Positions 2,529-27,478 of a stretch of DNA of 48,645 nt are shown one piece after another. The number at the start of each line of letters is the position of its first letter. Position 1 is the stretch's first letter. The notes under the pieces are model-generated. The model did not search any database. It saw nothing but the letters and a program-made list of their open reading frames with translations, and was not told the origin of the DNA. Origin of the DNA: Candidatus Nomurabacteria bacterium RIFCSPLOWO2_01_FULL_39_17 (GTDB lineage Bacteria > Patescibacteriota > Minisyncoccia > Phycocordibacterales > UBA9973); assembly GCA_001785805.1 (NCBI GenBank), contig MFUU01000010.1, positions 1,936 to 50,580 on the forward strand, read 5' to 3'. Both the position numbers and the translations under genes were made by a program.

Positions 2529-4277
2529 ATGCAAATCAATGAAGAACAATTGAAGAAATTTATTTTGGATTCCAAACTGGTTTCCAAAACAGATCTGGAT
2601 AAAGCGAGCGCTGAAGCGATAGAAAAAAAACAAAAACTTGGAAACATTTTGCTCTCAAGTGGCAAGATATCAGAATCAGATTTAAGAAAAACAGAAGCCT
2701 TCGTTCTGGGCATTCCTTTTATTAACCTGGTTAATGAAAAGATTGGTTTTTCTGTCCTTTCTTTGATTCCCGAGCCGATTGCGCGCAATTCCAATATAAT
2801 TGCCTACAAAAAAAACGCCGATAATCTGGAAGTGGCAATGCTTGACGTAGAAGACATGCCGGTTATTGATTTTATAAAGAAACGTTCCGGGTTAAAAATT
2901 TTGCCTCGTCTCACCGATGTTAATTCTATAAAATCCGCGCTTATTCAATACAGGGAAAGTTTGCAGATTGAGTTTGGCAATATTATTCAAAAAGAATCGG
3001 CATCTCTAAAAGCTATTTCTAAAGATGAAGGTGAAAAATCAGAAGCCGAATTGAAAGAAATGGCCGAAGATTTGCCGGTGGTCAAAATTGTTGACTCGCT
3101 TATTTTTCACGCTATCCTGCAGAATGCATCGGACATTCATATTGAGCCGGGAGAAAAGGATCTAACCGTGCGATACAGAATAGACGGCATTCTTCATGAC
3201 GCAATGGTTCTGGAAAAAAAAGCTGCTGCCGGAATAACCGCCCGCATAAAAGTGCTGTCAAATTTAAAACTTGATGAAAAAAGATTGCCCCAAGACGGTA
3301 GATTCAAGATAGACCAGAACGGAGAAAAGGTTTCCTTCCGTGTTTCCACTCTGCCAACTTTCTATGGCGAGAAAACTGTTATAAGAATTTTAAAAGAAAA
3401 TGCCCACGGATTTTCGTTGGAGTCGCTCGGTTTCCACGGTGAGGGACTTGAGAGAATACATGATTCTTTGAAACAGAAGACAGGGATGGTGTTAGCGACT
3501 GGACCGACCGGTAGCGGAAAAACTACGACTCTCTATACCATGCTTGATATTTTAAATAAACCTGAGGTAAATATATCTACAGTTGAAGATCCGATTGAGT
3601 ACCAAATGCCCAGAGTTAATCAAACGCAAGTAAAACCCGAGATAGGGCTTACTTTTGCTAACGGTCTTCGCTCGCTTCTTCGCCAAGACCCGGACGTAGT
3701 GATGGTCGGAGAGATTCGCGATAAAGAAACAGCGGGACTTGCCATCAACGCTTCTCTTACCGGACATTTGGTGCTTTCTACAATTCATACCAATTCCGCT
3801 TCAGGAGCGATTCCGAGGTTGATAGATATGGGCGTGGAACCATTTTTAATAGTTTCAACTGTCAAGACAATAATTGCGCAAAGATTGGTGCGTAAATTGA
3901 TGGCCAGTAAAAAAAAGCACTTTCTATCGCCTGTGGAAATAAAAAATTTAGGCAAACTTGTGGATTTAGACAGAATGCTTGTCATGCTAAGGGAAGAAAA
4001 AATTGTAGGAGCCAAAGACACTTGGGACAAAATTTCTTTTTATAAGGCAGTAAAAAATGCCGAATCAGAAGACGGATACGCAAGCCGTGTCGGTATTCAT
4101 GAAGTTCTAAAAGTTACTCCCACTATAAGGGAATTAATCTTAAAAGGCAGTTCTCAGGATGATATTGAAGTGCAGGCAAAAAAAGAAGGGATGATGACCA
4201 TGCTTGAGGATGGAGTTTTTCAAGCGGTGTTGGGGCAAACAACCCTGGAAGAAATATTCCGTGTTGTTTCCGAGTAA
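2529..4277 (+). CDS. pilB: Type IV pilus assembly ATPase PilB (GspE family)
   Basis: 582 aa. Walker A GPTGSGKTTTLY, Asp box VEDPIEY, His box GHLVLSTIHTN, N-terminal T2SSE_N-like region. Confidence 0.9.
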   Translation: MQINEEQLKKFILDSKLVSKTDLDKASAEAIEKKQKLGNILLSSGKISESDLRKTEAFVLGIPFINLVNEKIGFSVLSLIPEPIARNSNIIAYKKNADNLEVAMLDVEDMPVIDFIKKRSGLKILPRLTDVNSIKSALIQYRESLQIEFGNIIQKESASLKAISKDEGEKSEAELKEMAEDLPVVKIVDSLIFHAILQNASDIHIEPGEKDLTVRYRIDGILHDAMVLEKKAAAGITARIKVLSNLKLDEKRLPQDGRFKIDQNGEKVSFRVSTLPTFYGEKTVIRILKENAHGFSLESLGFHGEGLERIHDSLKQKTGMVLATGPTGSGKTTTLYTMLDILNKPEVNISTVEDPIEYQMPRVNQTQVKPEIGLTFANGLRSLLRQDPDVVMVGEIRDKETAGLAINASLTGHLVLSTIHTNSASGAIPRLIDMGVEPFLIVSTVKTIIAQRLVRKLMASKKKHFLSPVEIKNLGKLVDLDRMLVMLREEKIVGAKDTWDKISFYKAVKNAESEDGYASRVGIHEVLKVTPTIRELILKGSSQDDIEVQAKKEGMMTMLEDGVFQAVLGQTTLEEIFRVVSE

Positions 4278-4353: not shown

Positions 4354-5574
4354 ATGCTTTTTTCTTATAAAGCAAAATCAAAAAATGGCGAATTAGTGGA
4401 CGGTATTTTAGAGTCTGCGGATCGTTTTGCTCTTTCTCGTGAACTGAGATCTCGCGAACTCACCCCCGTTTCTATTGCAGAGAAAAATAGCAGTTATTCC
4501 TTTAATCTAATGGCTTTCCTGAATAATTTTTTCAGCAGAGTCAGTATTGTCGAATTGATTCTTTTCACCAAGAATTTAAGCGGAATGCTTCGAGCCGGGC
4601 TTTCACTTTCGCGGGCGTTATCGGTTCTGGAGAAACAAACGAAAAAACAAAACTTCAATAAAATTTTAGTCGCCCTTTCCCAGGAAGTTAATGCTGGAGG
4701 AACATTATCCTCGGGTTTTGCGAAATTTCCAAATGTTTTTTCCAAACTTTTCGTATCCATGACCAAAGCCGGAGAAGAATCTGGCAATCTCACCGGCGCT
4801 ATTTCTGAAGTCGGGGCAAATTTAGAAAAAGCGCATTCTTTGACCAAAAAAGTGCGTGGTGCGCTCATCTACCCCGGAGTTATTCTATCGGCTATGATTG
4901 TCATAGGCATACTGATGTTTGCTTTCGTTGTGCCGACTCTAGCCAAAACCTTTAAAGAACTTGATGTTGCATTGCCATTTTCTACCAGAATTATTGTTTG
5001 GTTAGGTAATTTTTTCTCCAATAATTTAATTTTGACTTTTATAATTTTGATCTTATTGGTAATTACTATAATCAAACTTTCCCACTCTAAATTTATGGCA
5101 AAATATATTGATTTTTTAACTATCAGACTGCCGATAATTGGCGGCTTAACGAAAGAATTAAATACTGCCCGCACTGCCCGCACCATGTCCTCACTCTTAT
5201 TGTCTGGGGTTTCCATAACCCGGGCGGTTGAAATAACAGAAGATGTTGTGCAGAATATTTATTTTAAAGAAGTTTTAAATAAAGTAAAAATCGCAATAGA
5301 AAAAGGTTCCCCTTTTTCTGCCGTATTTGAAGAAAATTCTAATCTTTATCCCATAATGATGTCTGAGATGACAGAAGTTGGAGAAGAAACGGGGAAGCTC
5401 TCTGATATGTTGCTTCAAATTGCATTATTTTATGAGGAAGAGATAGAAAACAAAACCAAGAACCTTTCTACTGTTATTGAACCCATATTAATGATAATTA
5501 TCGGCGCCGGGGTAGGGTTTTTTGCTATTTCTATGATTTCACCGCTTTATTCAGTTTTAGACAACATAAAATGA
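4354..5574 (+). CDS. pilC: Type IV pilus platform protein PilC (GspF family)
   Basis: 406 aa with duplicated T2SS-F type domains and hydrophobic segments. Directly follows pilB. AGGAG lies 10 nt upstream of the ATG. Confidence 0.88.
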   Translation: MLFSYKAKSKNGELVDGILESADRFALSRELRSRELTPVSIAEKNSSYSFNLMAFLNNFFSRVSIVELILFTKNLSGMLRAGLSLSRALSVLEKQTKKQNFNKILVALSQEVNAGGTLSSGFAKFPNVFSKLFVSMTKAGEESGNLTGAISEVGANLEKAHSLTKKVRGALIYPGVILSAMIVIGILMFAFVVPTLAKTFKELDVALPFSTRIIVWLGNFFSNNLILTFIILILLVITIIKLSHSKFMAKYIDFLTIRLPIIGGLTKELNTARTARTMSSLLLSGVSITRAVEITEDVVQNIYFKEVLNKVKIAIEKGSPFSAVFEENSNLYPIMMSEMTEVGEETGKLSDMLLQIALFYEEEIENKTKNLSTVIEPILMIIIGAGVGFFAISMISPLYSVLDNIK

Positions 5575-6565: not shown

Positions 6566-7072
6566 ATGAAAAATCAAATACAAAAAGTAAAAGGAGGATA
6601 TACACTAGTTGAGATACTTTTTTACATCGCTCTTTTCTCGGTTCTTACTTTGGCGATAATTAATTCTTTTGTTACCATGACCAAAGCTTTCAAAGAAATA
6701 TCCATACAATCGGATCTAGTTCAAAGTTCTTTGGCTATTGAAAGAATGTCACGAGAAATTCGGCAAGCATATGGGATAAATTCCATTACTACAAGCGACC
6801 TTAAACTTAACACCAAAGACGAACTGGATAATAATGAAACGGTAAGATTTTTACTGTCGGGTTCCGATATACAACTTTTTGAAAATGATGTTCTTACAGG
6901 CAACTTAAACACCCCCAATATTCAAGTGGTTAATTTGTCTTTTACTCAAATTACAACCGTGAATGGAAATGCCATAAAAATAAGTCTATCAGTAAAAAGT
7001 GGCAGAGATATGACAAATCGAGTTGAAAACTTTTACAATACAGTTTTGTTGCGGGGAGATTATGGTAGTTAA
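6566..7072 (+). CDS. Prepilin-type pseudopilin
   Basis: 168 aa. KGG/YTLVE with Glu+5 and hydrophobic helix ILFYIALFSVLTLAII. Confidence 0.75.
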   Translation: MKNQIQKVKGGYTLVEILFYIALFSVLTLAIINSFVTMTKAFKEISIQSDLVQSSLAIERMSREIRQAYGINSITTSDLKLNTKDELDNNETVRFLLSGSDIQLFENDVLTGNLNTPNIQVVNLSFTQITTVNGNAIKISLSVKSGRDMTNRVENFYNTVLLRGDYGS

Positions 7073-7083
7073 TTTATTTACCA

Positions 7084-8340
7084 ATGAATAAATTTAAAAA
7101 AATTAAAAAGAACAGGGGGCAAGCGATGATTATATCGGTAGTATTTTTCCTTTTTATTTCACTGGCGATAATCTCGGGGCTGGTTTCGCCTTCAGTGCGT
7201 GAATTTAAAATAGCCAACGATTTACTAAAATCCAGCCAGAGTTTTTTCCTCTCCGAATCGGCCATTGAAGATTCATATTTTCGCTTGAAAAACGCTAAAA
7301 CCATAGGATCCACAAATACTGTTACACTGGGAGGATACTCGGCCACAGCTACAATAACGGATTCCGGCTATAACGAGAAAACTGTTTCTTCATTGGGTGA
7401 TGTTTCATCGAGGCAGAGAAAAAATCAACTTGTATTAAGCACTGACACTAGAGTTTCGTTTAATTACGGCATCCAATCTGGCGTGGGGGGATTTGTTATT
7501 GGCAACGCAACAGTTCACGGTAATGTATATTCTAATGGAACCATTCTTGGATCCAATGGGGCTTCTATTACCGGATCCGCTTTTTCCGCCGGAGCTTCTG
7601 GCCTTATCGATAATATAGATGTGGGAGAAGATGGCGTAGGCGATGCCAAAGCTCACACAGTGCAAAATTCTACCATAGAAGGCAGCCTTTATTGTCAAAT
7701 TGGAGCAAGTAATAACAAGTCTTGCGATACATCACAGGTCGATCCGGATATGGTTGGTATGCCTCTTACCCAAGCAATGACAGATCAATGGAAAGCTGAT
7801 GCAGAATTAGGAGGAATCCATATTGGCAATTTAACTATTTCTTCACCGACTTCATTGGGTCCAAGAAAAATTACCGGTAATTTGGCCATAAATGATGATG
7901 TCACTATAACCGGAACTATTTATGTGGTGGGTAATATCACCACAGATAATGGAGCCGAAATTTCTTTGCATGGTTCTTATGGCGCTACAGGCGGCATTAT
8001 TATTGCCGATGGGCGGGTAAGGCTGAATAACCTTGTTAAATTTTACGGTTCTGGAAGCGAAGGATCTTACATATTACTCACAACAACCAGCTTTTGCCCT
8101 ACTGACTGTTCTGGAATAAATGCTCTTGAGATTTTAAATAATGTTGGTGCCATACTTGTAAGCGCCCAGAACGGCACAGTTCATCTAAATAATAATGTTG
8201 AATTAAATGAAGTAGTGGGGAATAAAATTATTATAGACAACGGCGCAAAAGTGACCTATATTTCCGGATTGGCAAATGCAGCTTTTACTTCTGGTCCTGC
8301 CGGGGGCTGGAATATTAAAAGTTGGAAAGAAATTAAATAA
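7084..8340 (+). CDS. PilX/GspK-like minor pilin-associated protein with Gly/Asn-rich beta-helix-like C-terminal region
   Basis: 418 aa. N-terminal RG/QAMIISVVFFLFISLAII helix without Glu+5. Repeats such as GNATVHGNVYSNGTILGSNGASITGSAFSAG. Last gene of the pilus cluster. Confidence 0.55.
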   Translation: MNKFKKIKKNRGQAMIISVVFFLFISLAIISGLVSPSVREFKIANDLLKSSQSFFLSESAIEDSYFRLKNAKTIGSTNTVTLGGYSATATITDSGYNEKTVSSLGDVSSRQRKNQLVLSTDTRVSFNYGIQSGVGGFVIGNATVHGNVYSNGTILGSNGASITGSAFSAGASGLIDNIDVGEDGVGDAKAHTVQNSTIEGSLYCQIGASNNKSCDTSQVDPDMVGMPLTQAMTDQWKADAELGGIHIGNLTISSPTSLGPRKITGNLAINDDVTITGTIYVVGNITTDNGAEISLHGSYGATGGIIIADGRVRLNNLVKFYGSGSEGSYILLTTTSFCPTDCSGINALEILNNVGAILVSAQNGTVHLNNNVELNEVVGNKIIIDNGAKVTYISGLANAAFTSGPAGGWNIKSWKEIK

Positions 8341-8344
8341 ATAT

Positions 8345-9106
8345 ATGAAGAAAATTATTATAGCTAATTGGAAAATGAATCCGTCTTCTCCAAAAGAAGC
8401 GGGACAATTATTCTCAAACACTGTTAAATTAATTTCCGGTGTTAAAAAAACTGAAGTTGTAATTTGTGCGCCCTATGTTTATTTAAGCGGGTTGAAAAAG
8501 CTATCTTCCAAGATTTCTTTAGGCGGACAAAATATTTTTAAAGTGGAAGAGGGCGCTTATACGGGAGAAATATCGGCTGATATGCTCTATAATATAGGAG
8601 TCCAGTATGTCATTTTAGGTCATTCTGAGCGACGTGCCTTGGGTGAGAATAATCTGAATGTAAATAAAAAGATAAAAATAGCACTCAGAGCTGGACTTAC
8701 GCCCATACTTTGCGTAGGAGAGGACAAAAGAGATGAAAATCACGGATATTTTAATTTCGTTAAGAACCAACTGGAAGAATGTCTGAATGGAGTTCAAAAA
8801 GATTCTTTGTCTAAGATAATTATTGCTTATGAACCAGTCTGGGCTATTTCCAGCACTCTCAATCGTCGGGATGCCAATGCGAATGATTCTCGAGAAATGG
8901 CTATCTTTATTCGTAAAACTATTTCTGACAAATTAAATAATCAAAATAAAATGCCGAGAATAATTTATGGCGGTTCAGTTAATGAACGAGACGCCGAAGA
9001 TTTCATAAAAAATGGAGGCGTAGATGGATTATTGGTCGGCCGAGCGAGCTTAAACGCCAAGAAGTTCTCCTCGATTGTAAAAATATGCGAAGCATCAGAG
9101 AGATAA
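8345..9106 (+). CDS. tpiA: Triosephosphate isomerase
   Basis: MKKIIIANWKMN start, GHSERR motif, AYEPVWAI, YGGSV. Start placed at ATG 8345 rather than the upstream ORF-track Met, which overlaps the previous gene. Confidence 0.9.
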   Translation: MKKIIIANWKMNPSSPKEAGQLFSNTVKLISGVKKTEVVICAPYVYLSGLKKLSSKISLGGQNIFKVEEGAYTGEISADMLYNIGVQYVILGHSERRALGENNLNVNKKIKIALRAGLTPILCVGEDKRDENHGYFNFVKNQLEECLNGVQKDSLSKIIIAYEPVWAISSTLNRRDANANDSREMAIFIRKTISDKLNNQNKMPRIIYGGSVNERDAEDFIKNGGVDGLLVGRASLNAKKFSSIVKICEASER

Positions 9107-10011
9107 AAAATTTAAATGGAAAAACGGTGCTCCTCCGAGTAGACTGGAATGTTCCAATTGAAAACGGTCGGGTGCTAGATGATTTTCGCATCAAGCGTTC
9201 TATGCCGACCATAGAATATCTCCAAAATGCTGGCGCTAAAGTTATCATTGCGACGCATCTTGAGCCGGAAGAAATATCTACCGAAATTTTACATGACTTC
9301 ATACCAAAAGGCTCTGAAATACTTGAGAATCTAAGAAAAGATCCGGGAGAAAAAAATAATTCTCCCGAATTTGCTAAAAGTTTGGCTAGTCGGGCGGATA
9401 TGTATGTCAACGAAGCATTTTCCGCTTCTCATCGTTCACATGCTTCAATAATCGGTGTGCCCAAGCTCCTGCCGAGTTTTGCCGGACTTGAGTTTTTAAG
9501 TGAAGTTGAAAATCTATCCAAAGCTTTCAATCCGCCACACCCATTTTTACTCATCTTGGGCGGAGCAAAGTTTGAAACCAAACTGCCGCTGGTGGAAAAG
9601 TTTCTTCAAATTGCCGACAGTATTCATATTGCCGGACTCAATGCCGCAGCCGCTTTGAAGATGAAAATTTCAGAGAATAGTAAAGTTTCTTTACCGCTTG
9701 GGGATATTACCGCGCTCGATATTGACGAGGCAAATCTCAATTTACTGCGGACCAAGATAAATGATGCCAAGTTCATAATCTGGAACGGTCCGCTTGGAAA
9801 ATATGAGGATGGTTACAAGGAGGGTACGAATAAACTCGCTCAAATCCTCGCGGAAAGTGGCAAGGAAGTAATAGTGGGCGGCGCCGATACGCTAGCGGTG
9901 ATCAAAGAACTTAATCTTTACGATAAATTCAATTTTGTTTCAACCGGCGGGGGAGCGATGCTTGAGTTTCTAGCCAAGGGGACTCTACCCGGCATTAAAG
10001 CGCTGAACTAA
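9085..10011 (+). CDS. pgk: Phosphoglycerate kinase, unusually short (308 aa)
   Basis: LLRVDWNVP, NEAFSASHRSHAS, GGAKFETK, WNGPLG, GGAD and STGGGAMLEFL motifs are present. Overlaps the tpiA 3' end by 22 nt. Confidence 0.85.
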   Translation: MRSIREIKNLNGKTVLLRVDWNVPIENGRVLDDFRIKRSMPTIEYLQNAGAKVIIATHLEPEEISTEILHDFIPKGSEILENLRKDPGEKNNSPEFAKSLASRADMYVNEAFSASHRSHASIIGVPKLLPSFAGLEFLSEVENLSKAFNPPHPFLLILGGAKFETKLPLVEKFLQIADSIHIAGLNAAAALKMKISENSKVSLPLGDITALDIDEANLNLLRTKINDAKFIIWNGPLGKYEDGYKEGTNKLAQILAESGKEVIVGGADTLAVIKELNLYDKFNFVSTGGGAMLEFLAKGTLPGIKALN

Positions 10012-17152: not shown

Positions 17153-17881
17153 ATGTTAAAAAGTAAAAATATTTTAATAACTGGTTCATCGTCTGGTATC
17201 GGGGCGGCAACTGCACGGTTGGCGAAAAAATACGGGGCAAATCCAATTTTACACGGCAAAACCGAAAGCGACGAGTTAAAAGCATTAGCTAAAGAATTGA
17301 ACTGTGAATATATTTTCTGCGATGTTGCTGATAAGGTAGCTGTTGAGTCTGAAGTTAATAAGATTTTAATAAAGTTCAAAAGAATTGATATATTGGTAAA
17401 TTCTGCAGGAATTTCTAAAGGACAAAACTTTTTAGAAGGAACTGATGATCTCTGGCTAGAAATATTTAAAGTAAATGTTTTAGGGACGAAACATTTTTGC
17501 CAGGAAATTATTCCCCACATGCAAAAGAATAAATACGGAAGAGTAGTAAATGTAGCTTCAATTAGAGGTTATGCGAACACTACTGGTAATTCTGCTTACG
17601 GAGCTTCTAAAGCTGCAATATTGACGATGACTGCTTCTTTAGCTAAAGAATTTGCACCAAAAATTGCAGTAAATGCTGTTGCTCCTGGTTTTACAGATAC
17701 AAGGATGGCTCTTGATCGTACGGAAAAGACTAAACAACAAGTAAAAGAAGCTTTACTGGGCAGAGCGGCATTGCCAGAAGAAATTGCCGAGGTGATTTTA
17801 TTTTTAGCTAGTGACAAAGCTAGTTTTATCACAGGTCAAACGATTATAGTGGATGGAGGTTATTCAATTTCAGGGAAATAA
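17153..17881 (+). CDS. Short-chain dehydrogenase/reductase (FabG-like)
   Basis: 242 aa. TGSSSGIGAATA cofactor motif, NSAG and the YGASKAA catalytic motif. Confidence 0.85.
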   Translation: MLKSKNILITGSSSGIGAATARLAKKYGANPILHGKTESDELKALAKELNCEYIFCDVADKVAVESEVNKILIKFKRIDILVNSAGISKGQNFLEGTDDLWLEIFKVNVLGTKHFCQEIIPHMQKNKYGRVVNVASIRGYANTTGNSAYGASKAAILTMTASLAKEFAPKIAVNAVAPGFTDTRMALDRTEKTKQQVKEALLGRAALPEEIAEVILFLASDKASFITGQTIIVDGGYSISGK

Positions 17882-17882
17882 T

Positions 17883-18356
17883 ATGCCTCATATTCATGAA
17901 AAAATTGATTTTACAGTAGAGGTTTTTATTGTTCATAAAAATAAAGTTTTACTGCGTATACATGATAAATATGGTATTTGGCTTTCTATCGGTGGACATA
18001 TTGAACTTCACGAGAACCCAGTGGAAGCAGCTATCCGTGAAGTGAAAGAAGAAGTTGGACTGGATATAAAAATAATCGGTGATGCACATGGTCCATTGAG
18101 TGGTAAAAAAGAGAACAGGAATTACACTTACCTTATTCCACCGCGGTATCTGGGGAGACATCCCGTCTCCAATAACCACGAACACATAGCCTTTGTTTAT
18201 TTTGCCACAGCTGATACTTATGTTATTGCAGAATCTATAAGTGCACACGAAAGATCAAATGCACGCTGGGTGAGCATGGAAGAACTTGAGAAAATGGATC
18301 TTGTTCCGAATATATATTTCTACGCCACCGAAGCGCTAAAAGAGCTCGGTAAATAG
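17883..18356 (+). CDS. Nudix hydrolase
   Basis: Nudix box GGHIELHENPVEAAIREVKEEVGL. Start set at ATG 17883 (MPHIHEK), right after the SDR stop. Confidence 0.85.
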   Translation: MPHIHEKIDFTVEVFIVHKNKVLLRIHDKYGIWLSIGGHIELHENPVEAAIREVKEEVGLDIKIIGDAHGPLSGKKENRNYTYLIPPRYLGRHPVSNNHEHIAFVYFATADTYVIAESISAHERSNARWVSMEELEKMDLVPNIYFYATEALKELGK

Positions 18357-19554: not shown

Positions 19555-21300
19555 ATGGAGGAAGAAATAAAAAAATTAATTAAAGACGCCCTGGGGAACC
19601 TCGCGATAGAGGTTGGTAATTTCACTATTGAGCATCCAGAAGATTTAAAGAATGGGGATTATTCCACGAATGTCGCCCTGGTCATAGCTAAAAGTGTTGA
19701 GAGAAATCCGCAAGAACTGGCCGAAAAAATAGTTGCCGAAATAATTAGACTAAACATAGATAAAAATATTGAAAAAGTAGAAGTTGCCGGCGCGGGATTT
19801 ATTAATTTTTATTTGTCCCGAAAGTTTTTCAGTGGTAGTGTTGAGGAAATCCTGAATATTAAAGATTTCGGTACAAATAAAATCTTTGCTAGCAAGAAAA
19901 TAATGGTTGAATACACTGACCCCAATCCTTTCAAGCCCTTTCATATCGGCCACCTGATGACGAATGCGATTGGGGAATCAATCGCGAGGATTTTGGAATA
20001 TTCTGACGCCGATGTTTCTCGGGCGAATTATCAAGGCGATGTGGGGCTACATGTGGCGAAAGCTTTTTATAGTATGCGAAAGAGAGGAATGCCGAAAGAT
20101 ATGGATGCTCCGGTATCGGTTTTAGCCCAATATATAGGCGAATCTTATGCCAAGGGCAATGAGGCTTATGAAAATGATATAAAAGCCAAAAAAGAAATTG
20201 AAGTTTTGAATAAAAAGATTTACGACAAAAATGATGAAGAAATAAATAAAGTTTACAACTGGGGTTTTAAAGTTACGATGGAAGCTTTTGAAGATTTGTA
20301 CAGAATACTCGGGACAAAATTTGATTTTTATTTTTTGGAGAGCGAAGTCTCTTTGTTCGGAGAACAAATAGTAAAAGATAATATCGGTCGGGTTTTTGAA
20401 AAATCTGACGGGGCAGTTGTTTTCAAAGCAGAGAAACACAACCCTAAACTTCACACCAGAGTTTTCATAACCTCTGAAGGTCTTCCTACTTATGAGGCCA
20501 AAGAGCTTGGGCTTACTGAAGAAAAATTTAAAGTTAAACCCGATATGGATCTTTCACTCGTTGTTACCGCCAACGAACAGGCAGACTATATGAAAGTGGT
20601 TGATAAAGCTCTTTCCTTGATTCATCCCGAATATGAAAACAAAATGCTCCATATCACGCACGGGATGATGCGCCTCCTCGCCCGTAGCCGGGCTACGGCC
20701 GAGGAGCTTACTTCTATAAAAATGAGCTCGCGGAAGGGTAATGTGATTACTGGCGAAAAGCTTATCCGCGACACGATTGCCTTGATAGTCGAGAAAATGA
20801 AAGATAGGAGTTGGAACCAGGAGGAGAAAAATAAGGTTGCCGAAAATGTGGGCGTAGCGGCGATAAAATATTCTATTCTTCGCTCCAAGGCGGGGAACGA
20901 TATTGTCTATAATGTTGAAGAGTCAATTTCGGTGGAGGGGGACTCGGGTCCATACTTGCAATATTCTTTCGCCCGAGCAAATTCAGTCATAGAAAAAGCG
21001 CAGAAGGAAAATATTTTGCCGGACTTTGAAAAAGTTCCCGATGAAGTGTCGGAAGTGGAAAAATTATTATATAGATTTCCGGAAGTTGTATCTCGTTCCG
21101 CATCTTTATACGAACCGCACCATATTGCGACTTACCTCATAGAACTAGCTCGTGCTTTTAATAACTTTTATGGGCATACTTTGATTGTAGATAAAAAGGA
21201 CATTACTTCTTCTTATAAAATAGCTTTAACTTATGCATTTTCTTTTGTAATGAAAACAGGCCTGCATCTCCTGGGCATCGAAGCCCCAAAGCGGATGTAA
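19555..21300 (+). CDS. argS: Arginine--tRNA ligase
   Basis: 581 aa. NPFKPFHIGHL (HIGH), KMSSRKG (KMSKS-like), C-terminal anticodon-binding DALR-type region ending in M. Confidence 0.9.
   Translation: MEEEIKKLIKDALGNLAIEVGNFTIEHPEDLKNGDYSTNVALVIAKSVERNPQELAEKIVAEIIRLNIDKNIEKVEVAGAGFINFYLSRKFFSGSVEEILNIKDFGTNKIFASKKIMVEYTDPNPFKPFHIGHLMTNAIGESIARILEYSDADVSRANYQGDVGLHVAKAFYSMRKRGMPKDMDAPVSVLAQYIGESYAKGNEAYENDIKAKKEIEVLNKKIYDKNDEEINKVYNWGFKVTMEAFEDLYRILGTKFDFYFLESEVSLFGEQIVKDNIGRVFEKSDGAVVFKAEKHNPKLHTRVFITSEGLPTYEAKELGLTEEKFKVKPDMDLSLVVTANEQADYMKVVDKALSLIHPEYENKMLHITHGMMRLLARSRATAEELTSIKMSSRKGNVITGEKLIRDTIALIVEKMKDRSWNQEEKNKVAENVGVAAIKYSILRSKAGNDIVYNVEESISVEGDSGPYLQYSFARANSVIEKAQKENILPDFEKVPDEVSEVEKLLYRFPEVVSRSASLYEPHHIATYLIELARAFNNFYGHTLIVDKKDITSSYKIALTYAFSFVMKTGLHLLGIEAPKRM
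20674..20706. repeat. 33-nt GC-rich imperfect palindrome in frame inside argS
   Basis: CTCCTCGCCCGTAGCCGGGCTACGGCCGAGGAG: 15/16 arm positions are complementary and 25/33 are G or C, in an AT-rich gene. Encodes LLARSRATAEE just before the KMSSRKG motif. Confidence 0.7.
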
Positions 21301-21314
21301 AAATAAAGATTTTA

Positions 21315-21323
21315 TGTTAAAAT
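21315..21323 (+). promoter_or_regulatory. Extended -10 box TGTTAAAAT, 8 nt upstream of ATG 21332 (ileS)
   Basis: TGn plus TAAAAT. It overlaps the alternative upstream ATG at 21314. Confidence 0.35.
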
Positions 21324-21331
21324 CAGTCATA

Positions 21332-24300
21332 ATGACTGAAAAAGAAGAAAATACTAAATCCGATATGGTGCTTCGGGAGGAGCGAGTTTTGGAATTCTGG
21401 CAAAAAAATAAAATTTTTGATAAATCTTTAAAACAAACTGAGGGAGGTAAAGAATTTATTTTTTACGAAGGTCCGCCAACTGCCAACGGTAAACCGGGCA
21501 TTCACCACTTGGAAGCGCGGGCTTTTAAGGATGCAATTCCGAGGTATAAGACAATGCAGGGTTATCATGTCCGCCGAAAGGGCGGATGGGACACGCATGG
21601 ACTCCCCGTTGAACTGCAAGTAGAGAAAAAGTTGGGGTTAAATTCAAAAAAAGCGATTGAGGAATATGGTATTGCCAGGTTTAACCAAAAATGCCAAGAA
21701 AGCGTCTGGGAATATTTGAATATGTGGGAAAAATTTACCGAGCGCATCGGTTTCTGGCTTGATCAGGAGAATCCATATGTGACTTATCATAACAATTTTA
21801 TTGAATCTGTCTGGAATGTAGTAAAAAAAGTTGATAAGCAGGGGCTTCTCTATAAAGATTATAAAGTTGTGCCATGGTGCCCGAGGTGCGGAACAGTGCT
21901 TTCTTCGCATGAACTTGCACTAGGATATGAGGATGTAAAAGATTTGTCGATATATGCGAAATTCAAAATTCGCTCCGTCGGTGAAAAATTTTCTCAGGTC
22001 CTCGGAAAAAATCCCCAGACCGTTCGAAAATCTTCCCCCGACTCCGCTTTACCATTGTACTTTCTTGCATGGACCACTACACCGTGGACTCTGCCTGGCA
22101 ATGTCGCTCTGGCAGTGGGAGAGAAAATTATTTATGTAAAAGTGAAATTGAATAATGAAATATTTATTCTGGCGAAAGAACGAATTTCTATATTGCCAGA
22201 ACCTTATGAAATTCTGGAAGAAATACATGGACAGGATTTGATTGGTTTGGAATACGAACCGCTTTTCCCATATCTTGCCGAGATTATTCCCGAGAACGAA
22301 AAATCAAAGTTAGAAAAAGCATACAAGGTTTACGGGGCAGACTTCGTGACTACTATTGATGGTACAGGCATAGTGCACACGGCTGTGATGTATGGGCAGG
22401 ATGACTTTGAACTTGGCACCAAAGTTGGCTTGCCGAAGCATCACCTCGTTAATTCCGAAGGTAAATTTATCAAAGGGACGGGACTCCTGGAAGGTCGGTT
22501 TGTAAAAGAAAAAGATAACAACAATAAACCGACACTTGATGTAGACATCATTAAATATCTGACCGATAAAAATTTATTCTTCAAAAAAGAAAATTATGAG
22601 CACTCATATCCGCACTGCTGGCGCTGTAAAACAGCGCTTATCTACTATGCGCGAGATTCTTGGTATTTTAAAATGTCCGACCAAAAGATAAAAGAAAAAT
22701 TAATTGCCGAGAATAAAAAAATAAACTGGGAGCCTTCGCACATCGGGGAAGGGCGTTTCGGCGAATGGCTGAGGGAAGTAAAAGATTGGGCAATCTCCCG
22801 CGAGCGGTACTGGGGCACGCCATTGCCGGTCTGGGAGTGCAGTAAGTGTAACAAGAAACATGTAATTGGAAGCTTGGAAGAATTAAAAAAGAAAACAAAA
22901 AAGTCCGGCAACAAGTATTTCGTAATGCGCCACGGCGAAGCGGGTAATAATATTAAAAATGGCATTCATCATAGAGATTTGGAATATAGCGCCAAATTAA
23001 CAGAAAAAGGGAAAAAACAAGTATTAGAGAGTTTAAGGAATTTTAAAGAGAGAGTAGATATCATTATTTCTTCTACATTTGAAAGAGCAAAGGAAACCAC
23101 TGAAATAGTTTGTGGACAAATTAATTTTCCGTTAGGAAAAGTTATTTATAACCAACAAATTAAAGAACAAGAAACTAGTTCGTTTTTTGACGGCAAGGAT
23201 AAAGCAGTTTTTGATGAATATTATGATGGAGGTTATTTACTGGATAATCCAAATGAAATTTTACCAGATAGTGAAAGTTTTGCTCAGGTAATTAAAAGAA
23301 TTGGGCAATTTATTTATGATTTAGAAACGAACTATTCTAATAAAAATATTTTAATTATTGGTCATGGGAATGCGACTAATGCTTTGAGTTTTATAGTAAA
23401 AGGATTATCATTAAATAATTTATCAAGTAAAAATAATCCATTTATTTCTCTTAAAAATGCCGAAATCAGGGGATTTGATTTTATCCCACTTCCGCATAAT
23501 GAAAACTTTGAACTTGATTTACACCGGCCCTATATTGATGAAATTAATCTTGTCTGCGAATGCGGAAGCAAGCTGACGCGCACGAAAGAAGTAATGGATG
23601 TTTGGCTTGATTCTGGCACGATGCCGTTCGCGCAGGACCATTATCCATTTGAGAATAAAGATTGGGTAGAAGGAAAAGGTTATCCGGCAGATTATATTTC
23701 CGAAGCGATTGATCAGACTCGCGGGTGGTTTTATACGTTACACGCCGTTGGCGTCCTGATGGGTCGCGGGAGAGCATTTAAGAATGTTATTTGTCTCGGA
23801 CATTTACTTGATGCCACTGGCAAGAAAATGTCGAAATCTCTGGGAAATATAGTTAATCCGTGGGTGATGATAGAAAAATACGGAGCAGATACACTTCGTT
23901 TATGGATGTATTCTGTCAATCAGCCCGGAGAGTCTAAGAACTTCGACGAAAAGACAGTTGCTCTGCTTTCCCAGCAAGTTTTTGGACTGCTTTATAACGT
24001 GCTCGCATTTTATGAACTTTACCGCGATAGGGTGCTGGAAAAGAACAACCGACCCAAAATATCTAAAAATGTTTTAGATATTTGGATTCTTGCCAAACTT
24101 GATGAGTTGATAGGACTTTCAACTAAAAATTTAGACAATTATAAATTGCTTGAACCAGTAAGAGGCATGAAAGACTTTATCGGCGACCTTTCAACTTGGT
24201 ACTTGCGCCGTTCGCGAGAGAGAATAAAAGAAGGGGACGTGGAAGCAAAACAAACTTTATACTTTGTATTAAAAACTCTTACGAAATTATTAGCCCCATT

Positions 24301-24913
24301 TGCTCCACTTTCTGCGGAAGATATTTGGCTACGATTGAAAAACGACAAAGATACCGAAAGTGTGCATCTAGTAGAGTGGCCAAAAATGTCAAAGAGACTC
24401 TTTGACATTTTTGGCAGTGGAGAAGATGAAATTTTAAAGAATATGCAAACGGTGCGTGACATTTGTACTGCGGGTAAAGCAGAAAGACAGAGGTTAAATA
24501 TTCCTATTCGCCAGCCCCTAAATAGATTAGATATGCCACAAGGGTTACCCATTGAATATGTTGAGATTATAAAAAGTGAGTTAAATGTAAAAAGTCTAAA
24601 TTATACACTAAAAGCGGAGACAGGTATTTATAAAATAGGGTTTGATTCAGAAATTACCCCGGGATTAAAACAAGAAGGGAATTATCGCGAACTTGTTCGC
24701 GCCCTGCAAGATATGAGGAAGAAAATGGAGCTTACACCGAGCGATGTCATAGCCATAGCTTTCGAAACGAACGATATGGGTAAAGCTCTAATTGGAAAAT
24801 TTGAAGCTGATATAAAGAAAACCGTACTTGTGTCCAAAATAGAGTTTAAAGCAAATGACGGTCAAGAAATCAAAATAGACGAATTGGTATTTAAGGTAAA
24901 AATTGATAAATAA
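21332..24913 (+). CDS. ileS: Isoleucine--tRNA ligase with two insertions (repeat-derived ~18 aa, and a ~208-aa histidine-phosphatase domain)
   Basis: PPTANGKPGIHH (HIGH region), [27 protein letters not shown]-terminal anticodon-binding region. An alternative start at ATG 21314 would add 6 aa. Confidence 0.9.
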   Translation: MTEKEENTKSDMVLREERVLEFWQKNKIFDKSLKQTEGGKEFIFYEGPPTANGKPGIHHLEARAFKDAIPRYKTMQGYHVRRKGGWDTHGLPVELQVEKKLGLNSKKAIEEYGIARFNQKCQESVWEYLNMWEKFTERIGFWLDQENPYVTYHNNFIESVWNVVKKVDKQGLLYKDYKVVPWCPRCGTVLSSHELALGYEDVKDLSIYAKFKIRSVGEKFSQVLGKNPQTVRKSSPDSALPLYFLAWTTTPWTLPGNVALAVGEKIIYVKVKLNNEIFILAKERISILPEPYEILEEIHGQDLIGLEYEPLFPYLAEIIPENEKSKLEKAYKVYGADFVTTIDGTGIVHTAVMYGQDDFELGTKVGLPKHHLVNSEGKFIKGTGLLEGRFVKEKDNNNKPTLDVDIIKYLTDKNLFFKKENYEHSYPHCWRCKTALIYYARDSWYFKMSDQKIKEKLIAENKKINWEPSHIGEGRFGEWLREVKDWAISRERYWGTPLPVWECSKCNKKHVIGSLEELKKKTKKSGNKYFVMRHGEAGNNIKNGIHHRDLEYSAKLTEKGKKQVLESLRNFKERVDIIISSTFERAKETTEIVCGQINFPLGKVIYNQQIKEQETSSFFDGKDKAVFDEYYDGGYLLDNPNEILPDSESFAQVIKRIGQFIYDLETNYSNKNILIIGHGNATNALSFIVKGLSLNNLSSKNNPFISLKNAEIRGFDFIPLPHNENFELDLHRPYIDEINLVCECGSKLTRTKEVMDVWLDSGTMPFAQDHYPFENKDWVEGKGYPADYISEAIDQTRGWFYTLHAVGVLMGRGRAFKNVICLGHLLDATGKKMSKSLGNIVNPWVMIEKYGADTLRLWMYSVNQPGESKNFDEKTVALLSQQVFGLLYNVLAFYELYRDRVLEKNNRPKISKNVLDIWILAKLDELIGLSTKNLDNYKLLEPVRGMKDFIGDLSTWYLRRSRERIKEGDVEAKQTLYFVLKTLTKLLAPFAPLSAEDIWLRLKNDKDTESVHLVEWPKMSKRLFDIFGSGEDEILKNMQTVRDICTAGKAERQRLNIPIRQPLNRLDMPQGLPIEYVEIIKSELNVKSLNYTLKAETGIYKIGFDSEITPGLKQEGNYRELVRALQDMRKKMELTPSDVIAIAFETNDMGKALIGKFEADIKKTVLVSKIEFKANDGQEIKIDELVFKVKIDK
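21983..22035 (-). repeat. Family 1 nested-hairpin element, copy F, in frame inside ileS
   Basis: Contains TTCTCAGGTCCTCGGAAAAAATCCCCAGACCGTTCGAAAA, 40/40 identical to the reverse complement of copy A. Translated as [18 protein letters not shown]. Confidence 0.85.
22886..23509 (+). other. Histidine-phosphatase (phosphoglycerate-mutase-like) domain inserted within IleRS
   Basis: KYFVMRHGEAGNN (RHG motif, His codon 22931-22933), ISSTFERAKETT, ILIIGHGNATNAL (second His codon 23363-23365). Bounded by WECSKC (22838-22849) and VCEC (23555-23563). Confidence 0.75.
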
Positions 24914-24917
24914 AATA

Positions 24918-25499
24918 ATGCATCACATTTATCACACCGAAGGAATAATACTAGGGAGTAAGAATTACGGAGAGGCGGGGAAATATTATTCTATTTTCAC
25001 CCGCGATTTAGGGATGGTATACGCCTCCGCGCAGGGTGTGCGTAAAATGTCTTCCAAGCTCCGTTTTATCCTGCAAGACTTTGCTTATTTGAAAATTGAC
25101 CTTGTTCAGGGCAAGGACTTCTGGCGAGTGACCAGCGCATCAAAGACAAATAAACTAGAACAGCTTACGAAAAATCCGCGAACTTTAAAAGTTTTCAGCA
25201 ATATTGCGAAATTATTGAAGAGGTTGCTGGCTGGTGTGGAGCGCAATGATGTCTTATTTACGGATTTAGTAAATGGCTTATCTATTCTAGAAAAAACGAA
25301 AACGAACGAAGAATTACGGAATATTGAAGCCATTATTGTTCTGCGCATACTTAGTAATTTGGGATATATAGGCAGAGATGAAAAATTACAGAGTCTCGTC
25401 AAATCTCCGTTTGAAGAGAATTTAATATTTGAAGCAATGAAATCTAGGCGACAAATCCTATCTCAGATTAACAAAGCGCTTAAAGAAACTCATTTATAA
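24918..25499 (+). CDS. recO: DNA repair protein RecO
   Basis: 193 aa from ATG 24918. N-terminal OB-fold pattern TEGIILGSKNYGEAGKYYSIFTRDLG. Small RecO-like architecture. Confidence 0.7.
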   Translation: MHHIYHTEGIILGSKNYGEAGKYYSIFTRDLGMVYASAQGVRKMSSKLRFILQDFAYLKIDLVQGKDFWRVTSASKTNKLEQLTKNPRTLKVFSNIAKLLKRLLAGVERNDVLFTDLVNGLSILEKTKTNEELRNIEAIIVLRILSNLGYIGRDEKLQSLVKSPFEENLIFEAMKSRRQILSQINKALKETHL

Positions 25500-25555: not shown

Positions 25556-27478
25556 ATGCTCGAAGACAGAGAGAAATTAAATAGGATAGAAGACATGAAA
25601 AGCCGACTCTTCGGTAGAAGCTATAAGACAGAAATAGAACATCGTAATATCATTCGGCATACGGAGCCGAAAAGTGTTCCGGATTCTTGGCGGAAAGACG
25701 AAGAACAGAGTTTCATAAAAGAATTTTCCACTAGAACTTCGCTTTTTAAAAAGTTTTTTATTTTTTCTGTGGTTTTTTTTATTTTAGCTCTGGCTTACGC
25801 CTCTTATAACTTCTTCGCCGGTGGCAATACTGTATCTACTGACAATATAGAAATATCTGTGCTCGGGAATACTTTTACCGCAGGCGGAGAGGAATTACCT
25901 CTTCAGATTGATATAGCGAACAAGAACAATACTCCCCTAGATCTGGTTGATTTAGTGGTGGAATATCCGAAAAGTTCCGCCACCGGCCTTTCGGAGAATA
26001 CTGAACGCCTTCGCCAATCTCTGGGCACAATACCGGCTGGCGCGGTTCGCAGTGAAAACGTTAAAGTAACGCTTTTCGGTAAACAAGGAAGTATGCGCCC
26101 CATAAAAATTTCTTTAGAGTATAGGGTAGAAGGTTCGAATGCCATCTTCGTAAAAGACAAACTTTTTAATATTAATATTAATTCAACTCCCGTAAACCTT
26201 TCTATTGATGCTCCCGCCGAGATAAGCCCCAACCAAGACGTAGTTCTCGAAGTAAAGGCCACACTCAATGCAAATAAAGTGCTACCTTCAATGCTACTAC
26301 GGCTTGACTATCCGGCAGGCTTTCAATTTGCACTAGCCAAGCCGGCACCCTCGTTCGGCAACAATGTCTGGAACCTAGGCGATCTCGCCCCCAGCGTGGA
26401 ACACAGTATTTCAATAACTGGGAAGATGATCGATGTTTTCGACGGAGAAGAGAAGACATTTCGCGCTTGGACCGGCACGCAATCTCCGTCGGATAAATCT
26501 GCGATTGAGGTTATTTTCAATTCCATAGACCATACTCTGGCCATCAAAAAAGCATTTATCGAAGCCAAACTTTTTATCAACGGAGTTTACCAGAGGGAAT
26601 ACGCCACTAATACGATTACCCCTATTCAAGGAGAAATCAGATGGACTAATAATTTAGATACAAAGATCAATGATCTGGAAATTAAAGCGAAAATTTCTGG
26701 CAATGCCGTAGATCGAAGAACGATCAATTCACGAGAGGGTTTTTATGATTCGTTGGCTGATTCTGTTATTTGGGACAAAAATTATATAAATGATTTTGCT
26801 TCGGTAAATCCGGGGGACTCGGGTTCAGTTCGGTTTTCCATTTCTTCGCTTTCGTTATTCTCTGCCATCGGCGGGATGCTTTCTGAACCAACCATGAACA
26901 TAGAAATTTCTATTGCCGGCAAGCAAGCGATCGAAGGCAATATACTTAAAACGCTCTCCAATGGAGAAACAAAAATTGTACGTATTATTTCTGATGTTGG
27001 ATTTGCCAATAAGATTCTTTACTATTCTGGAGCGTTTCAAAACACCGGAACTATTCCTCCGAAAGCAGAAAAAGAAACCACCTACACGGTAGTCTGGACT
27101 CTCTCCAACACCGCGAACAGTATTTCAAACACAAAAATAAAATCTACTCTTCCGCCCTGGGTGCGTTTTGTGGGTGTAATTTCTCCAGCCAGTGAAAATC
27201 TGGACTATAATGCGTCTACCAAGGAAATAGTCTGGAACGTGGGTGCAATACCGAGAGGAGCCGGCATCACCACCAAAGAAAAAGAAGTTGCTTTCCAAGT
27301 GGCATTTATTCCTTCGCTCTCCCAAATCGGTAATGCGCCAACTCTCATCAATGACGCTATTTTGACTGGGCATGATGATTTTGCCAATGTGAATGTTAGA
27401 ATAAACAAATCATCGCTTAATACTAATCTTACCAACGACCCACTTTTCCCTTCCGGGGGTGATAGAGTGACAGAATAA
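25556..27478 (+). CDS. Single-pass membrane protein with a large extracytoplasmic beta-rich domain, function unknown
   Basis: 640 aa. One TM helix (FFIFSVVFFILALAYASYNFF), then repeated beta-sandwich-like segments. No catalytic motif recognised. Confidence 0.6.
   Translation: MLEDREKLNRIEDMKSRLFGRSYKTEIEHRNIIRHTEPKSVPDSWRKDEEQSFIKEFSTRTSLFKKFFIFSVVFFILALAYASYNFFAGGNTVSTDNIEISVLGNTFTAGGEELPLQIDIANKNNTPLDLVDLVVEYPKSSATGLSENTERLRQSLGTIPAGAVRSENVKVTLFGKQGSMRPIKISLEYRVEGSNAIFVKDKLFNININSTPVNLSIDAPAEISPNQDVVLEVKATLNANKVLPSMLLRLDYPAGFQFALAKPAPSFGNNVWNLGDLAPSVEHSISITGKMIDVFDGEEKTFRAWTGTQSPSDKSAIEVIFNSIDHTLAIKKAFIEAKLFINGVYQREYATNTITPIQGEIRWTNNLDTKINDLEIKAKISGNAVDRRTINSREGFYDSLADSVIWDKNYINDFASVNPGDSGSVRFSISSLSLFSAIGGMLSEPTMNIEISIAGKQAIEGNILKTLSNGETKIVRIISDVGFANKILYYSGAFQNTGTIPPKAEKETTYTVVWTLSNTANSISNTKIKSTLPPWVRFVGVISPASENLDYNASTKEIVWNVGAIPRGAGITTKEKEVAFQVAFIPSLSQIGNAPTLINDAILTGHDDFANVNVRINKSSLNTNLTNDPLFPSGGDRVTE

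Follow-up and report, generated by a model that had tools for sequence, protein, structure and literature searches.

An intact histidine phosphatase domain inside an isoleucyl-tRNA synthetase, and its recurrent pairing with that enzyme in CPR bacteria

The isoleucyl-tRNA synthetase (IleRS) encoded in a 48,645-nucleotide stretch of Candidatus Nomurabacteria bacterium RIFCSPLOWO2_01_FULL_39_17 (contig MFUU01000010.1, positions 1,936 to 50,580 of the forward strand; the whole of this stretch is called the window below) carries a complete histidine phosphatase (His_Phos) domain within its zinc-knuckle loop. Our main new result is that His_Phos domains occupy three distinct sites of IleRS in different lineages, sometimes twice in one protein. 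The sites were mapped by Pfam scans and by direct reading of the sequences of the longer relatives. Site A is the zinc-knuckle loop, occupied in the window protein, in the database protein P0243 and by the first copy of P0240; site C, between WFESGSMPYAS and ADFIAEGLDQTRGWF, holds the first copy of P0256; and site B, which lies some 65 residues beyond KMSKS and right ahead of the anticodon-binding domain, is filled in P0254 and by the second copies of P0256 and P0240. The residues R-H, R, E and H are kept in every copy at all sites. A form with the domain at site B only is found in Candidatus Abawacabacteria and Gracilibacteria (nine clusters, 68-100% identical), and because its nearest relatives, which are about 1035 residues long and 62-63% identical (P0289, one of them, is named Gracilibacteria), lack the domain, this insertion is peculiar to its lineage and distinct from the form in Paceibacteria.

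The pairing also exists without fusion. At two diverged loci (L083, 5001-8311, with L084 and L087; and L088, 685-2101) a stand-alone His_Phos gene for 187-188 residues lies between argS and an uninterrupted ileS. The TGA stop of P0006 (187 residues) overlaps the ATG of a 916-residue ileS in the tetranucleotide ATGA, and the zinc-knuckle linker of that ileS has the normal short length; the split form of L088, 53% identical to the L083 type, has the same layout with an ATGTTAA overlap. These stand-alone forms also keep the catalytic residues. A split form with translational coupling, alongside fusions at more than one site, amounts to a Rosetta-stone pattern, and this speaks for the His_Phos-IleRS pairing as such being under selection.

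The position and fold of the domain in the window protein are well defined. Taken alone, the stretch 22886-23509 matches PF00300 (His_Phos_1) at E=7.2e-19, its 68.7 bits exceeding the gathering score of 21.7, and a Pfam scan of the full-length protein places the match at residues 536-705. In the alignment to the structure 8c8w, residues 10-527 of the query correspond to positions 2-477 of the chain, and residue 731 onward to position 483 onward; because the alignment breaks at these points, about 203 residues replace a linker of about five residues in the type-2 enzyme (IleRS2). The domain sits between the two Cys pairs of the connective-peptide zinc knuckle. An AlphaFold2 model of the insert alone, built with 25 homologues, has a mean local confidence (pLDDT) of 93.1 and a predicted TM-score (pTM) of 0.90, and Foldseek gives a probability of 1.0 for its likeness to PspA, to the monomeric 211-residue cofactor-dependent phosphoglycerate mutase (dPGM) of S. 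pombe, to 9mmh, Rv2419c, PhoE and CobC, with target-normalised TM-scores of 0.70-0.75 and 19-24% identity. By its Pfam score, its alpha/beta fold and its catalytic core residues the insert is a member of the His_Phos superfamily, and on this model it folds on its own as a complete branch-1 histidine phosphatase. A full-length AlphaFold2 model (116-sequence alignment) again rendered the insert well and the Rossmann core poorly, with a pTM of 0.53.

An earlier note on this DNA, made from the letters alone, had read the gene as an IleRS with an intact domain of the phosphoglycerate mutase (PGAM) family in its zinc-knuckle loop, and had proposed a profile scan and a structure prediction as checks. 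The Pfam match, the 8c8w alignment, the independent fold (pLDDT 93.1) and the invariance of the catalytic motifs bear this reading out. The motifs that it quoted are all where it placed them (CSKC at 22838-22849, GSLEEL at 22868-22885, RHG at 22928-22936, SSTFERAKETT at 23069-23101, IIGHGN at 23354-23371, LDLHRPYIDE at 23513-23542 and CEC at 23555-23563), and the short linker that it gave for ordinary IleRS agrees with the roughly five residues of 8c8w.

The gene that hosts the domain appears to be the working IleRS of the organism, a type-2 enzyme with an editing domain, KMSKS and a GXHH motif. The whole protein scores 855.2 bits on the NCBIfam equivalog model TIGR00392 (ileS), whose cut-off is 621.4, and besides PF00300 it matches the Pfam domains for IleRS catalysis, anticodon binding and the type-2 C-terminus, PF00133, PF08264 (residues 922-1069) and PF19302 (residues 1105-1199); its closest PDB matches are the IleRS2 structures 8c8w/8c8u and T. 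thermophilus 1ile, with E about 1e-222 or better. The C-terminal organisation, PF08264 plus PF19302 (DUF5915/ARD3) and no C-terminal Zn-binding domain, is that of type 2 as defined in a 2026 preprint on IleRS domain evolution. The database protein P0007 is 100% identical to the window IleRS, and its 1193 residues, the length that the earlier note had estimated, fit a start at M7 (21332). Both class I motifs are present, KMSKS and an HXGH-type motif that reads GIHH; this GXHH form is the mupirocin hyper-resistance form of IleRS2 and is documented as functional (Brkic et al., 2023, PMC10485003). Among the split forms the corresponding motif is GIHH in L083 and the canonical HYGH in L088. No second ileS was seen within the 48.6-kb window. 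From the offset in the 1ile alignment, we take C509/C512 and C748/C750 of the window protein to be Cys461/464 and Cys502/504 of T. thermophilus IleRS.

The nested architecture is the rule in Paceibacteria/Nomurabacteria-type genomes from the candidate phyla radiation (CPR). All of the 120 best full-length database matches carry PF00300 together with IleRS domains (63-100% identity, 1130-1335 residues), and the source names of these 120 are Paceibacterota, Nomurabacteria, Minisyncoccia or Parcubacteria. In an exhaustive HMMER scan, for which the query was the insert plus 40 residues of IleRS on either side, 157 representatives of 50%-identity clusters had E<=1e-30, and among the matches listed nearly all run unbroken through both flanks and the insert, or are pieces of such genes. 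When one genome per species was scanned, 391 stretches were found to encode a relative; the best 80 of the 391 are all from Patescibacteria, among them a 693-kb contig of RAAC4_OD1_1 (L080). Even on two contigs of about 100 kb whose genes are fragmented by frameshifts (L001 and L002), the order ArgRS, IleRS N-part, His_Phos, IleRS C-part is kept. In Paceibacteria-type CPR bacteria the insert is an ancient trait passed on by vertical inheritance. That an assembly or gene-calling error had joined a separate phosphatase gene into ileS, which the earlier note named as a way in which its call could fail, is almost certainly wrong, given a single uninterrupted reading frame in the window and the same architecture in hundreds of independent assemblies, very long contigs as well as L001 and L002 included; nothing was found in its favour, and chance is excluded too. 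The survey of databases that the note had also proposed leaves the call standing and removes the novelty that the note attached to it, as there are hundreds of CPR relatives, precomputed Pfam domains in public databases and a published case in SR1 (PMC3812714). A word-indexed search with the insert alone had returned 6 proteins and made the architecture look rare; this was an artefact of index sensitivity, and the rarity was rejected when the full-length and exhaustive searches gave hundreds.

Several observations on the wider set of genes deserve mention. Two different contigs of one metagenome-assembled genome (isolate SO_2017_LW1_31; L039 and L055) each have a full-length match to the fused region, suggesting that the bin is mixed or else that ileS is present twice. 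The NCBI name of the Paceibacteria fused IleRS is 'class I tRNA ligase family protein', and one fragment is called 'histidine phosphatase family protein, partial'; the site-B form of Abawacabacteria bears the name 'isoleucine--tRNA ligase'. The insertion at site A may therefore block the specific NCBI name, and could make IleRS look absent in automated surveys. The composition of the insert differs from that of its host gene (GC 0.29 versus 0.40, and 0.21 versus 0.39 at third codon positions, GC3), and in sixty-codon blocks along ileS the value goes from 0.60 down to 0.13-0.22 and back to 0.43. The dip recurs in related loci (L003-L082), where the GC of the insert is lower in 71/73 and its GC3 in 64/73. 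Being systematic across relatives, it led us to reject a recent horizontal transfer as its source; it may reflect relaxed constraint under an AT mutational bias.

Conservation within the domain was computed by columns over 121 aligned sequences, and cap lengths were counted over 116 relatives. R539, H540, G541, R591, E618, R662 and H684 are invariant in 121/121. By family knowledge we take H540 to be the nucleophile, R539, R591 and H684 to form the phosphate pocket, and E618 to be the proton donor. Mean identity is 47% over the insert as a whole versus 75-84% over the catalytic parts of IleRS, and since the catalytic residues are invariant in an insert that is only 47% identical, selection acts on catalysis. 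Judged from these residues, the insert is very probably an active phosphomonoesterase. The junctions with IleRS are the other conserved part. S531, N533 and Y535 do not vary at the N-terminal one, where K530 and G532 are at least 90% conserved; at the C-terminal one F723, P727 and H728 are nearly invariant and D735, H737, P739 and D742 are invariant. That the junctions are far better conserved than the body of the domain (83.6% versus 47%) suggests a fixed docking geometry. The least conserved part is the cap, which is shrunk to 5-8 residues in 6/116 relatives. In histidine phosphatases the cap usually builds the substrate pocket and confers specificity, so that a cap this variable and deletable favours a substrate that is recognised mainly through its phosphate or is presented by a partner.

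We consider a tethered phosphatase that works with IleRS to be the best explanation overall, while holding it tentatively. That the insert is functionally coupled to IleRS, and not merely co-expressed with it, seems to us somewhat probable. A phosphatase with little substrate recognition of its own would work tethered to the synthetase, and would strip phosphate from something that IleRS binds or produces. The coupling finds support in the other domains of phospho-chemistry that the IleRS of relatives has gained: an HD domain at the C-terminus of forms of about 1330 residues, a P-loop kinase-like domain at site C of P0243, the second His_Phos copy of P0240 and P0256, and, in SR1, a Nudix domain. 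Subtyping of the HD and P-loop domains gave generic or marginal matches only (HDIG; APS-, shikimate- and guanylate-kinase-like), all at or below threshold, and yielded no clue to a substrate. Relatives with further IleRS domains are P0030, P0034, P0092, P0054, P0243, P0240, P0256 and P0159; the last combines His_Phos with an IS200-like Y1 transposase domain (residues 340-461) and, at its C-terminus, a GNAT domain; this gene call may be chimeric.

As to what the tethered phosphatase would act on, each specific substrate is improbable taken singly. Our best guess, itself of low probability, is a blocking 2'/3'-phosphate on the tRNA acceptor end, followed closely by an adenine-nucleotide by-product. 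On a par with the latter we place the speculative idea that the domain, embedded or encoded in the operon, is a built-in activity of tRNA end-healing or immunity, which would clear a blocking 2'/3'-phosphate from the acceptor end of tRNA-Ile shortly before it is charged; in relatives, a pyrophosphate or a cyclic phosphate would first be turned into a monophosphate by the Nudix and HD domains.

A number of points weigh against a phosphatase that works with IleRS. There is no direct evidence for any substrate, and every close structural neighbour found by Foldseek is a small-molecule (metabolite) enzyme. The net charge of the insert is about 0 per 100 residues, with no basic enrichment, so that nothing suggests RNA binding by the insert alone. 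The full-length AlphaFold2 model is too poor in the Rossmann core to place the direction in which the active site faces. The distances of the three sites from the acceptor end are not obviously alike, and site B, which precedes the anticodon-binding domain, is not obviously close to it; exact geometry may thus be unimportant, and this would suit mere co-expression as well. A neighbour-joining tree of the domain copies at the three sites and of the stand-alone genes is star-like, and fits independent captures as well as a single ancestral capture with later moves inside the gene. Finally, a reason why IleRS, and not other synthetases, should need such a partner is lacking.

The strongest rival holds that the domain is an independent small-molecule phosphatase (specific, for example, for phosphoserine, a sugar phosphate or a nucleotide), for which IleRS is a mere carrier with no interplay between the two; in a streamlined CPR genome it would just have been joined to an essential gene with constitutive expression. 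We regard this as unlikely, though it has more in its favour than any other alternative. The closest structures are all metabolite phosphatases of about 200 residues (PspA, PhoE, CobC, Rv2419c and the riboflavin-pathway HFP 9mmh), the domain folds autonomously and also occurs as a protein by itself, its rate of evolution exceeds that of its host and its composition is distinct, and the differing insertion sites suggest that exact geometry is not critical. However, a mere carrier leaves unexplained why IleRS is the partner every time, at three sites, in several lineages and in a translationally coupled operon. The best matches listed from the exhaustive search nearly all hold both IleRS flanks and the insert, or are fragments thereof. 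A metabolite-specific enzyme would moreover be expected to conserve its cap, which is here the most variable part and is sometimes deleted, and the strong conservation of the junctions speaks against simple carriage too.

Much less probable is a protein phosphatase that acts on IleRS itself, in cis or in trans, and reverses an inhibitory phosphorylation near KMSKS (for instance by HipA-type kinase toxins), so that the synthetase would protect itself. SixA, PGAM5 and Sts-1 are His_Phos protein phosphatases, and the insert has a weak SixA match of 30 bits; the insertions fall around the catalytic domain's second half, and a variable cap fits a macromolecular substrate. Yet the SixA match is below its cut-off (30 versus 74.5), evidence of such kinases is lacking for these genomes, and the Nudix, HD and P-loop kinase-like domains of relatives point to nucleotide chemistry rather more than to the dephosphorylation of proteins.

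A moonlighting phosphoglycerate mutase, one of the roles suggested in the earlier note, fares marginally worse and is disfavoured. Its attraction is that a dPGM would fill the phosphoglycerate mutase (PGM) gap of some Parcubacteria clades. The note's remark that no mutase gene lies beside tpiA (8276-9106) and pgk (9085-10011) in the window is correct, the best fold matches include the monomeric S. pombe dPGM, and across 25 members of the insert family the top models are NF038349 (dPGM_arch) and CobC, with the short archaeal dPGM model NF038349 as the best of NCBIfam (best E 1.9e-30). No curated subfamily cut-off is reached by the insert, though, and its matches are weak throughout (CobC, RNase H/acid phosphatase, archaeal short dPGM, PspA, GpmB, SixA). 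Against their cut-offs it scores 30.3/74.5 for SixA, 45.7/162.9 for CobC, 35.3/350 for PspA and 30.5/261 for GpmB, and the dPGM models do no better: TIGR01258 gives 31.7 against 81.7 (domain scores 25-32 bits) and NF038349 40.1 against 225, with all PRK dPGM models likewise far below cut-off. The dPGM signature E-R-H-Y-G is absent as well. Aligned to yeast PGM1, the window protein reads E618-Q-E-T-S, and in the family column 619 is W/L/I, column 621 is V/T/A, and column 630, the equivalent of K100, is W/R/K. R90, Y92 and K100 matter for substrate binding in dPGM, as titles of PDB entries also indicate. Nor does the family conserve the Asn that follows the second His, and a cap that is variable, and nearly deleted in 6/116 relatives, argues against a tightly specified metabolite such as 3-phosphoglycerate. 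A mutase would also leave the specific association with IleRS unexplained. The gap itself was reported by Jaffe et al. (2020), for whom PGM is missing from several shallow Parcubacteria clades; the dPGM model of that survey is TIGR01258, with listed values of 72.95, 81.7 and 67.1, and because the embedded domain scores only 25-32 bits on it, such a domain would escape the survey.

Least probable among the functional alternatives is a non-catalytic module, a degenerate fold kept as a structural spacer or a tRNA-binding surface: class Ia synthetases commonly carry idiosyncratic insertions without catalytic function and this one evolves faster than its host, but none of its catalytic residues varies in 121 sequences whose identity is otherwise about 47%, and R-H, R, E and H are kept at the other sites and in the stand-alone forms.

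The window IleRS belongs to a kind already known from CPR bacteria, the interrupted IleRS, for which the evidence from several sites and from the split operon is new. In SR1, IleRS was found to be split by two PGM domains and a Nudix domain, with no function proposed (Kantor et al., 2013, mBio, PMC3812714). Like it, the window protein is a CPR IleRS interrupted by a domain of the PGAM/His_Phos family, and the three interruptions and four pieces of the SR1 enzyme match the three sites that we mapped in relatives. It differs in having a single His_Phos domain, at the zinc-knuckle site, no Nudix domain and a Paceibacteria-type host. RAAC4_OD1_1 (L080), the OD1 genome of the same paper, carries the single-insert form, whereas the sentence on the interrupted synthetase covers SR1 only. 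Beyond this remark of 2013 we found nothing in the literature on combinations of a synthetase and a phosphatase, and no paper on the single-insert form of Paceibacteria or testing any function; in the 2026 preprint on IleRS domain evolution the words 'phosphatase', 'Patescibacteria' and 'candidate phyla' are absent.

Other known proteins resemble parts of this architecture. PspA (4ij5), PhoE (1h2e), CobC (3hjg), Rv2419c (4qih) and the HFP 9mmh share fold, size and catalytic residues with the insert, but they are free-standing, whereas the insert is nested in a synthetase loop or, in the split forms, its counterpart is translationally coupled to ileS. The dPGM enzymes (TIGR01258, NF038349, S. 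pombe 1fzt) have the same superfamily and fold and are the source of the label 'phosphoglycerate mutase domain'; the insert departs from them in its missing signature and K100 equivalent, its unconserved cap and its scores far below cut-off. In the RNase H/acid phosphatase proteins (NF005567, Rv2228c type) and in mycobacterial MutT1 (Nudix plus His_Phos, NF052459) a His_Phos domain is likewise joined to an enzyme of nucleic acids or nucleotides; these are end-to-end fusions with other partners, which the insert family matches weakly and far below cut-off. NF040702 ('isoleucine--tRNA ligase, N-acetyltransferase domain-containing') illustrates that IleRS can bear an extra enzymatic domain, yet one of another type and position, and the window protein is not a member (302 bits against a cut-off of 1999).

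Table 1. Features of the fused gene, its nested domain and its immediate neighbours (window positions; residues counted from the first ATG of ileS)
Feature	Coordinates	Strand	Basis
argS (arginyl-tRNA synthetase), upstream neighbour	19555..21300	+	ArgRS-like translation
ileS, type-2 isoleucyl-tRNA synthetase with nested His_Phos	21314..24913	+	single uninterrupted open reading frame, 1199 residues from first ATG
Class I signature motif, non-canonical GXHH form, G62-I-H-H65 (GIHH)	21497..21508	+	sequence
First Zn-knuckle Cys pair, C509-S-K-C512 (CSKC)	22838..22849	+	sequence; conserved in 119/121 relatives
N-terminal junction KKKTKKSGNKY, residues 525-535, lysine-rich	22886..22918	+	mean identity 83.6%
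Nested branch-1 histidine phosphatase domain, residues 528-730	22895..23503	+	PF00300, AlphaFold2, Foldseek; limits from 8c8w alignment
RHG motif: R539, H540 (predicted phospho-accepting nucleophile), G541	22928..22936	+	121/121; role by family knowledge
R591 in SSxxxRAxxT segment, phosphate pocket (predicted)	23084..23086	+	121/121
E618, predicted general acid/base	23165..23167	+	121/121; aligns to E86 of yeast PGM1
Substrate 'cap' region, residues 619-653, variable	23168..23272	+	28% mean identity, highest column entropy
H684, second catalytic histidine (GHG)	23363..23365	+	121/121
C-terminal junction FIPLPHNENFELDLHRPYIDE, chain re-enters IleRS	23480..23542	+	conservation columns
Second Zn-knuckle Cys pair, C748-E-C750 (CEC)	23555..23563	+	sequence; conserved in 118-119/121
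KMSKS loop, residues 838-842	23825..23839	+	sequence; K837-S842 invariant among relatives
recO-like gene, downstream neighbour, overlaps ileS end	24903..25499	+	PF11967

The neighbourhood of the gene (Table 1) is conserved, as housekeeping synteny only. An argS homologue lies upstream on the same strand in 42/50 fused loci, products with ArgRS Pfam domains are encoded upstream in L001, L002 and L083, and RecO is downstream in 50/50. The upstream synteny of the split locus L083 (L20, IF3, SmpB, ArgRS) is common to the fused locus L001. A separate NUDIX gene lies at 17853-18356, a neighbour found in only 3/50 related loci. Directly downstream of recO, an open reading frame of 640 residues (25556-27478) has no Pfam match and is conserved downstream in 50/50 related loci, which makes its product a clade-wide protein. 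Elsewhere in the window, the tpiA frame (276 residues) overlaps the start of the pgk frame (308 residues), which matches the 379-position PGK profile in three stretches and looks shortened or oddly started; RecJ follows pgk from 10517, and no mutase or enolase gene adjoins this pair. At 58-2481 a protein of 807 residues has matches to CARDB and to thrombospondin type-1 (TSP_1) repeats, which are unusual in bacteria, and downstream of it lies a type IV pilus-like cluster with a T2SSE ATPase (2529-4277), a T2SSF protein (4354-5574) and a pilin-like N_methyl protein (6566-7072). An Rfam scan of the 48.6-kb window found no family at gathering score, and hence no recognised tRNA, rRNA or riboswitch.

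Bacterial aminoacyl-tRNA synthetases seldom have a second catalytic domain that is intact, and here a large bacterial group keeps one inside IleRS; its recurrence at other sites and as part of a coupled two-gene operon is a classic sign of a functional link. Both the IleRS and the phosphatase can be mis-scored in analyses of CPR genomes, the former through its generic NCBI names and the latter because it falls below the thresholds of published metabolic surveys. If its role is metabolic, the domain may fill gaps in metabolic reconstructions of CPR bacteria. If it acts on the tRNA end or on a by-product of the synthetase, it would add a new layer of quality control or repair to minimal genomes, and were end-healing its role, the synthetase would be resistant to nucleases or tRNA-modifying toxins, an undescribed form of RNA repair coupled to aminoacylation by the synthetase itself.

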